A stretch of 5,151 bases of DNA. Source: a virus. Taxonomy: Duplodnaviria; Heunggongvirae; Uroviricota; Caudoviricetes. Below are positions 2,320 through 2,841 of the stretch, in pieces. Under the pieces are notes generated by a model. It was given only the letters and a program-made list of their open reading frames with translations, made no database searches and was not told where the DNA came from. The stretch lies in the IMG/VR virus record IMGVR_UViG_2537561714_000007. One strand, written 5' to 3'. The position numbers and the translations under genes were made by a program. Each line of letters opens with the position of its first letter. Positions within the stretch are counted from its first letter, which is position 1.

Positions 2320-2841
2320 TTATTGAGGCCGAACGTAAACCTTCAGAATTGAAGAGATGCGTTCGGCTTCTTCGTTTGTGATATCGTTAGGAATGCCTTT
2401 AATCGTTACTGTAACCCCTGATTCAGGTCGAAGAACTACTGGAAGATCATAGGTATGAAGTGCATTAGCCTTGCCTTCGACTTTTGTTGGTTCGCCAGTC
2501 AAATCTTTTTCCTCACTGGATTCTTTGTCAATCGGAGTGTATGGGATTTCTTCACCAGACTGGAAAGCTACAAACTTTTTGATTGCACTTTCCATGCGGC
2601 TTTTATATGCAGTAATGCTGCTGTCGCTAGGCTTCGGCTCAGTTGCGTTGATGTATCGCTCGGCAAGCTCATTCACATCAAGCTGAGTAACATCACCCAT
2701 TTCCTCTTCTTGGACTACCGTTAAGAGGCGAGCGGATGAGTTTTTTAAATTTCGAGCGGTGGCCTCCTTCATTATGTTCAGCGACATAAGCTCTTCAAGG
2801 AAGTCCTTGAATGCCTGCACGCTAACGTTTGACTTTGCCAT
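2320..2841 (-). CDS. Hypothetical acidic protein, 173 aa, no Cys, no predicted transmembrane segment; sole cargo gene in the rexAB-equivalent slot between cI and pL
   Basis: Clean ORF-track ORF; purine-rich GAGAGAGAG stretch upstream of ATG 2839-2841; own promoter and flanking terminators; appears more AT-rich than the flanking lambda-type genes (by eye, not computed); no family recognised. Confidence 0.75.
   Translation of the reverse strand: MAKSNVSVQAFKDFLEELMSLNIMKEATARNLKNSSARLLTVVQEEEMGDVTQLDVNELAERYINATEPKPSDSSITAYKSRMESAIKKFVAFQSGEEIPYTPIDKESSEEKDLTGEPTKVEGKANALHTYDLPVVLRPESGVTVTIKGIPNDITNEEAERISSILKVYVRPQ

Follow-up and report, generated by a model that had tools for sequence, protein, structure and literature searches.

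The gene that occupies the interval between cI and N in this lambdoid immunity region, here named orf173, is the principal gene of a small mobile cassette carried by lambdoid prophages in the cI-N hot spot. The N-terminal half of its product (aa ~8-94) is, as judged from an AlphaFold model, a tyrosine-recombinase core-binding (SAM-like) fold. Tentatively, the protein is best viewed as a non-enzymatic and probably oligomeric accessory regulator that would bind DNA in a sequence-specific manner in the lysogen and control its own expression.

The window, i.e. the complete stretch of 5,151 nucleotides that was analysed, is a lambdoid immunity region (Table 1). Positions 1-3753 share 99.4% identity with Sakai-type Stx phages (Sp5/VT2-Sakai, Stx2 II, phage 2851 and the PA series), rising to 100% identity with the same phages over positions 677-3489. 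Several E. coli O157 genomes (H26-H31) carry an IS1203/IS3 element inside the 1700-3400 interval of an otherwise identical region. An Rfam scan of the window returned the cIII thermoregulator Lambda_thermo (340-398, minus strand, 88.5 bits), which is ordinary for a lambdoid phage, and nothing besides.

Table 1 Features of the immunity region, with positions numbered along the window
Feature	Position	Strand	Remarks
kil		minus	
cIII	221-385	minus	
ea10	458-826	minus	
ECs1180	1009-1260	minus	83-aa ORF; PHROG 2471; ORF21 of Sp5
N	1319-1663	minus	HK97/P22-type; Pfam N_peptide match
pL	1809-1781	minus	Sp5-type, TTGACC/TACTAT; downstream border of the cI-N slot
OL operators	1782-1798, 1807-1823, 1840-1856	minus	Sp5-type; downstream border of the slot
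Downstream terminator	2018-1997	minus	Strong, intrinsic; closes the cassette transcript
orf40	2024-2146	minus	40 codons, His/Cys-rich; PHROG 21154; putative coding
Structured spacer	2147-2319	minus	Between orf173 and the small ORF
orf173	2320-2841	minus	ECs1184/ORF23 of Sp5; 173 codons, ATG start; between cI and pL/N
Inferred sigma-70 promoter	2874-2902	minus	-35 TTGCAT (2902-2897), 17-nt spacer, -10 TAAACT (2879-2874)
Palindrome CAAGACT-tg-AGTCTTG	2900-2915		Overlaps -35; candidate operator with AGAC core
Upstream terminator	2972-2945	minus	Intrinsic; hairpin -18.3 kcal/mol, z -4.4
DUF3024 pseudogene	3000-3313	minus	Frameshifted, stop-containing; directly after cI, upstream of the cassette terminator
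cI	3343-4056	minus	Lambda-type N-terminal domain; upstream border of the slot
OR	4067-4130	plus	Lambda
cro, cII, start of O		plus	In that order after OR

Two immunity types meet in the window. The N-terminal domain of cI, OR, cro, cII and O are lambda-type (98.4% to lambda), and this same cI-to-O part is 99.6% identical to a defective lambda-immunity prophage of O157:H7 TR01. OL/pL and everything leftward are Sp5-type; the OL operators match the OR operators of Sp5 and not those of lambda. The comparison covered positions 1781-1856 versus 3343-4130 of the window, locus L029 and positions 2108-2170 of locus L028. The crossover lies inside 3345-3490, in the shared C-terminal coding region of cI. 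The joint of lambda cI with Sp5 OL is absent from complete phage and E. coli genomes and present in a 6.8-kb IMG/VR contig that is 99.8% identical. It is either a real recombinant, whose pL needs an Sp5-type repressor residing in the same cell, or a chimeric contig that was put together through the shared repeat.

The frame of orf173 had been called correctly from the letters alone, with respect to coordinates, strand and ATG start. Its product is 100% identical to ECs_1184 of the Stx2 prophage Sp5 and gives a full-length profile match with PHROG 2602 (function unknown; residues 1-173 of 173, E 3.5e-102). This match and the predicted fold supersede the earlier statement that no known family was recognised. 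orf173 is a real gene under purifying selection. Comparison with the Salmonella, Proteus and Serratia orthologues showed that synonymous changes outnumber non-synonymous ones in the two folded domains and that the linker is free to vary. The protein is acidic and cysteine-free (pI 4.85, no Cys), as had been noted. It had also been held that the gene is more AT-rich than its neighbours and hence of foreign origin. This is not the case, since its GC content of 0.444 lies between that of the window (0.438) and that of cI (0.459), and composition gives no support for such an origin. Among 5,426 complete E. coli genomes, about 235 carry ECs1184. A literature search with the RefSeq accession of orf173 found nothing.

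Published data are nevertheless available under the Sp5 names of the gene. Mondal et al. applied in-frame, marker-free sacB allelic exchange to all unknown Sp5 genes in a K-12 lysogen (PMC5155283). The only genes that could not be deleted in K-12(Sp5) were ORF23 (ECs1184) and ORF21 (ECs1180); it was suggested by the authors that both are needed for stable lysogeny, and no conserved domains were reported (PMC5155283). For ECs1184 this is a negative result without complementation, and its cause may be cis or technical. For ECs1180 a cis explanation is possible. The final 12 nt of this gene are the 5' arm of a terminator hairpin (1020-999), and since the Sp5 deletions kept 9 nt per end, the hairpin would be destroyed and read-through towards kil could follow. 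ECs1184 was furthermore detected, albeit borderline (FDR 0.065), in a 2025 RNA-associated proteome of EHEC Sakai, and its expression from pBAD was tolerated (PMC7618764). Its detection in Sakai cultures is consistent with expression without induction, as the first-pass annotation had proposed for the lysogen.

The AlphaFold model of orf173 begins with four helices (aa 8-94, pLDDT 85-91), continues with an acidic linker that is disordered (aa ~101-128) and ends in a C-terminal domain (129-173) in which a beta-hairpin is followed by a helix (aa 130-165). The hairpin-helix module alone, modelled with a deeper alignment, reached a pLDDT of up to 86. The model agrees well with the helical N-terminal half, linker and beta-rich C-terminal segment that had been recognized by eye, the disorder spanning residues 102-127. 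Relatives of the fold are the tyrosine recombinases IntI4 (7.4) and lambda Int (7.1 and 7.0), as well as XerA, XerH and XerD, and Pfam Phage_int_SAM_1 gave weak matches in 7 of 35 family members. In recombinase structures the helices equivalent to helices 2 and 4 of orf173 enter the DNA major groove. Conserved polar or basic residues of orf173 are found on helix 2 (T28, R30, N31, K33, R38) and at the start of helix 4 (Y79-K-S-R82).

The core-binding four-helix domain is thus shared with tyrosine recombinases such as lambda Int (residues 65-169), XerD and IntI4. The catalytic domain with the R-K-H-R-H/W-Y active site is however absent from orf173, which has the 45-aa hairpin-helix module instead. 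Because both the catalytic domain and the active-site tyrosine are absent, orf173 cannot be a recombinase. Integrase-fold repressors with small antirepressor partners have been described in SPbeta-like phages (PMC10516654; bioRxiv 10.1101/2025.11.27.690993). MrpR/YopR of SPbeta and SroF of phi3T display the whole two-domain recombinase fold of about 320 aa and are master repressors of their own phages, whereas orf173 has the core-binding domain only and a classical cI alongside. Structural relatives of the C-terminal hairpin-helix module were not found. PDB sequence searches with two profiles gave no match for the family, a BFVD fold search returned nothing, and no other domain architectures with the orf173 domains were found. 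Searches with orf173 gave no hit on the RexA family in Pfam, 0 families at E <= 1 in PADLOC-DB 2.0 and no match in NCBIfam. The C-terminal domain as a free-standing 63-aa protein (PHROG 36396) was considered and rejected, these entries being mis-called starts of full-length members.

The cassette is built, in the direction of transcription, of a terminator, a sigma-70 promoter with a palindrome over its -35 element, orf173, a structured spacer with a small ORF, and a second terminator. The upstream elements were defined by aligning the upstream regions of the E. coli, Salmonella, Proteus and Serratia cassettes. The stem of the upstream terminator (AGGTCGCAG-loop-TGCGGCCTTTTTT) is invariant across all four, and this terminator ends the cI (pRM) transcript, insulating the cassette. 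The spacing of the promoter elements is kept across the genera, with TTGCAA/TAGAAT as the Proteus counterpart. A consensus promoter scan of the window did not score this promoter, so it is conservation that argues for it. The palindrome is unique; no further copy is present in the window, also not near pL or pR. The first-pass annotation had described an autonomous unit with its own promoter, bracketed by terminators. Such a unit, with an insulating terminator and an inferred promoter, does exist in the cI-N interval. The conserved -35 and -10 elements favour the promoter, though the scan left it without a score, and the upstream terminator stands as described, but the downstream one is not adjacent: it lies 300 nt beyond orf173, past the structured spacer and orf40. 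The slot also holds more than a single gene, as a DUF3024 pseudogene separates cI from the cassette. Within this remnant RefSeq annotates a 53-aa fragment (3080-3241). The remnant is about 81% identical to an intact region of 933W-like Stx2a phages, and the DUF3024 gene is intact in Proteus prophages.

The region from 1985 to 2325 is predicted to form structured RNA (z -5.0). The spacer is roughly 150-170 nt long in each genus, and the 3' part of the cassette (1985-2319) shows 91-92% identity between E. coli and Salmonella, above that of orf173 itself. orf40 is present in the E. coli and Salmonella cassettes; its positional counterparts are a 57-aa ORF (PHROG 33859) in Proteus and a 47-aa treble-clef zinc-finger-like ORF in Serratia. 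The differing codons of orf40 comprise 5 synonymous and 4 non-synonymous ones, and the non-coding spacer is equally conserved (92%). In view of this unclear coding signature, the 3' part could be a small RNA, instead of or besides a small protein.

The order of a regulator followed by a small ORF with a shared terminator, recurring in three genera, brings to mind an addiction or toxin-antitoxin-like pair, in which orf173 would keep the small product that is co-transcribed downstream in check, by repression and/or neutralisation. Loss of orf173 alone through an in-frame deletion would in that case be lethal, as the failed ECs1184 deletion might indicate (PMC5155283), and both the palindrome at the cassette promoter and the flexible linker, known from labile antitoxins, would fit. 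The small ORFs of the three genera are however mutually unrelated, gave no match with toxin families and are absent from the distant family members, which have no partner. Considering also the doubtful coding status of orf40, such a pair is quite unlikely.

Mosaicism is documented for the cI-N interval, a hot spot that harbours rexAB in lambda and bstA in BTP1 (PMC8585504). Prophages of E. coli, Salmonella, Proteus and Serratia share the conserved cassette and have different repressors. In those of Proteus/Providencia, Serratia and Salmonella an S24-type repressor precedes the gene at a distance of 170-590 bp and N follows it, all on the same strand, while the repressor, cro and replication modules of these prophages differ. 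A co-oriented cI-like gene lies upstream in 30 of 54 IMG/VR loci, 27 of which also have a detectable N downstream. Two of these 30 are at 35% identity; the others are all 28 loci in the 54-100% range whose flanks could be interpreted. The repressors beside the orf173 homologues in these loci are of at least about eight types. The family thus recurs in the interval. One true lambda-immunity prophage (L028) shows the order lambda cI, DUF3024 remnant, terminator, orf173, orf40, terminator, lambda OL3-OL2-OL1, nutL and lambda N. The cassette is found here exactly between lambda cI and lambda OL3 and therefore in the precise place of rexAB, in agreement with the rexAB slot proposed from the window. 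At other loci (L020 and L023-L025, 8842-9699) an identical lambda-type cI is followed by an NYN-domain (PF01936) gene, without rexAB or the orf173 cassette; the NYN-domain gene is another cargo of the hot spot. As the cassette is found beside many different repressors, its function is argued to be self-contained and not tied to one immunity switch.

Lambda RexA, which binds DNA and biases the CI/Cro switch (PMC11077077), shares with orf173 the slot adjoining cI, which in both the window and L028 lies between cI and OL/pL, and expression in the lysogen. orf173 however has no sequence or fold similarity to RexA and no known exclusion phenotype, its product is predicted to be soluble, and a second, RexB-like membrane gene was not found in the window. 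Moreover, rexAB is co-transcribed from pRM, whereas orf173 has its own inferred promoter behind a terminator. BstA of Salmonella prophage BTP1 is also encoded by a single, lysogen-expressed gene downstream of the repressor in the cI-N hot spot (PMC8585504), but it is an abortive-infection protein of the KilA-N type, 307 aa long, uses the promoter of the repressor gene and has no homology to orf173. orf173 is no Rex, no BstA, no PADLOC-listed system and no full integrase-fold repressor.

On positional grounds orf173 has nonetheless been suspected to be a lysogen-expressed anti-phage defence or exclusion factor, functionally analogous to RexAB or BstA. Its core-binding domain would then detect or bind the DNA of invading phages, or intermediates of replication or recombination, and the response itself would fall to the C-terminal module or to the small product encoded downstream. 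This is in line with the hot spot shared with rexAB and bstA (PMC8585504), with an autonomous cassette that moves among prophages of different immunities, with the NYN-domain cargo after an identical lambda-type cI elsewhere, and with the DNA association of RexA and BstA. It appears somewhat unlikely, considering that neither PADLOC nor NCBIfam gave a match, that orf173 has no effector-type domain or membrane segment, and that members of the family also reside in nin regions and as partnerless solitary chromosomal genes. Furthermore, loss of a defence gene should not kill, yet the deletion is apparently lethal (PMC5155283).

A profile search with the orf173 family yielded 652 cluster representatives (50% identity), 241 of them at E <= 1e-10; the best 150 of the 652 are all about 160-200 aa long and have the same architecture. 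The family occurs in four settings. The first is the acidic cI-N subfamily of prophages. Members with 41-46% identity are found in lambdoid nin regions, downstream of replication genes (L107-L127, IMG/VR), and this location implies that these paralogues would be expressed in lytic growth. They are preceded by DnaD-like and IstB-like replication genes, DUF1627 and DUF977, and followed by a cytosine methylase, an Arc-like gene and a P22-type antirepressor. One member is located at the end of another prophage, beside pepN. The fourth setting is that of solitary chromosomal genes in Alphaproteobacteria and Acidobacteria, encoding basic proteins (pI 9-9.7); conserved neighbours of these distant homologues were not found, the flanking genes being housekeeping genes only.

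An AGAC core is common to the E. coli palindrome (AAGACT/AGTCTT), two AGTCTT copies in Serratia and the Proteus site. The regions upstream of 41 distant relatives contain 66 copies of RGACA, compared to 18.9 +/- 4.4 in dinucleotide shuffles (maximum 30), an enrichment of about 3.5-fold for a motif that was picked post hoc, with the data already inspected. GC-matched windows contain about 14 copies. The RGACA(T) repeats are often situated between -35 and -10 or adjoin the Shine-Dalgarno sequence. Within 130 bp upstream of the distant chromosomal homologues at L014 and L030-L070 the repeats read TAGACAT, TGGACAT and CAAGACAT. The motif fits autoregulation without proving it; another regulator or a 5'UTR element could also account for it.

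An AGACAT copy directly precedes the Shine-Dalgarno sequence at many distant loci, as might be expected if orf173 were an RNA-binding post-transcriptional regulator of its own leader and of other transcripts. The borderline detection of ECs1184 in the UV-crosslinked RNA-associated proteome points the same way, but its RNA (PNK) labelling signal was no better than that of a GFP control, indicating that it is not a strong RNA binder (PMC7618764). The fold, moreover, is that of a DNA-binding recombinase domain, and this role is very improbable.

The regulatory role favoured above can be pictured as follows. An orphan core-binding domain would be joined by a flexible acidic linker to the 45-residue hairpin-helix module, which is taken as an oligomerisation or partner-binding module. 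Helices 2 and 4, bearing TARNxK...R and YKSR, would make sequence-specific contact with DNA, the target being AGAC-core repeats such as the palindrome across orf173's own -35. Binding at this palindrome would make orf173 autoregulatory, and an accessory regulator in the lysogen. Its loss may be harmful by derepression of the small ORF/RNA or other phage functions, or by destabilisation of lysogeny. We infer DNA binding, autoregulation and a role in lysogeny from the grouping of invariant basic and polar residues on helices 2 and 4, from the conserved terminator, promoter and unique palindrome, and from the RGACA enrichment. RexA (PMC11077077), MrpR and SroF (PMC10516654; bioRxiv 10.1101/2025.11.27.690993) may serve as precedents, by analogy. 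The nin and solitary chromosomal paralogues, the failed deletion (PMC5155283) and the promoter palindrome together argue for a DNA-binding regulatory role rather than defence. Against a regulator speaks the acidity of the prophage subfamily (pI 4.85), unlike its basic chromosomal relatives, and also the nin paralogues, which would be lytically expressed. An integral role in the immunity switch is argued against by the presence of the same cassette beside many repressors, including lambda cI, which needs no helper.

PHROG 2602 was already catalogued, as an uncharacterised family; what appears to be new is the fold assigned to it, the definition of the cassette, the candidate operator and the extent of the family. 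A bolder idea, which we consider unlikely, is that the ECs1184 family forms a new class of orphan core-binding-domain proteins reading AGAC-core operators, and that in Stx and other lambdoid prophages one member of it provides a second, cI-independent silencing layer or couples this function to phage exclusion. If such a layer exists, neither the prophage nor, as a consequence, Shiga-toxin production would stay silent without it. The Sakai outbreak strain has ECs1184 in its Stx2 prophage, and only one other early gene of Sp5 likewise resisted deletion. The analysis exposes a large uncharacterised family in prophages and in alphaproteobacterial and acidobacterial chromosomes, and its fold, cassette and candidate operator open ECs1184 to direct experiments on lysogen stability and toxin-phage induction.
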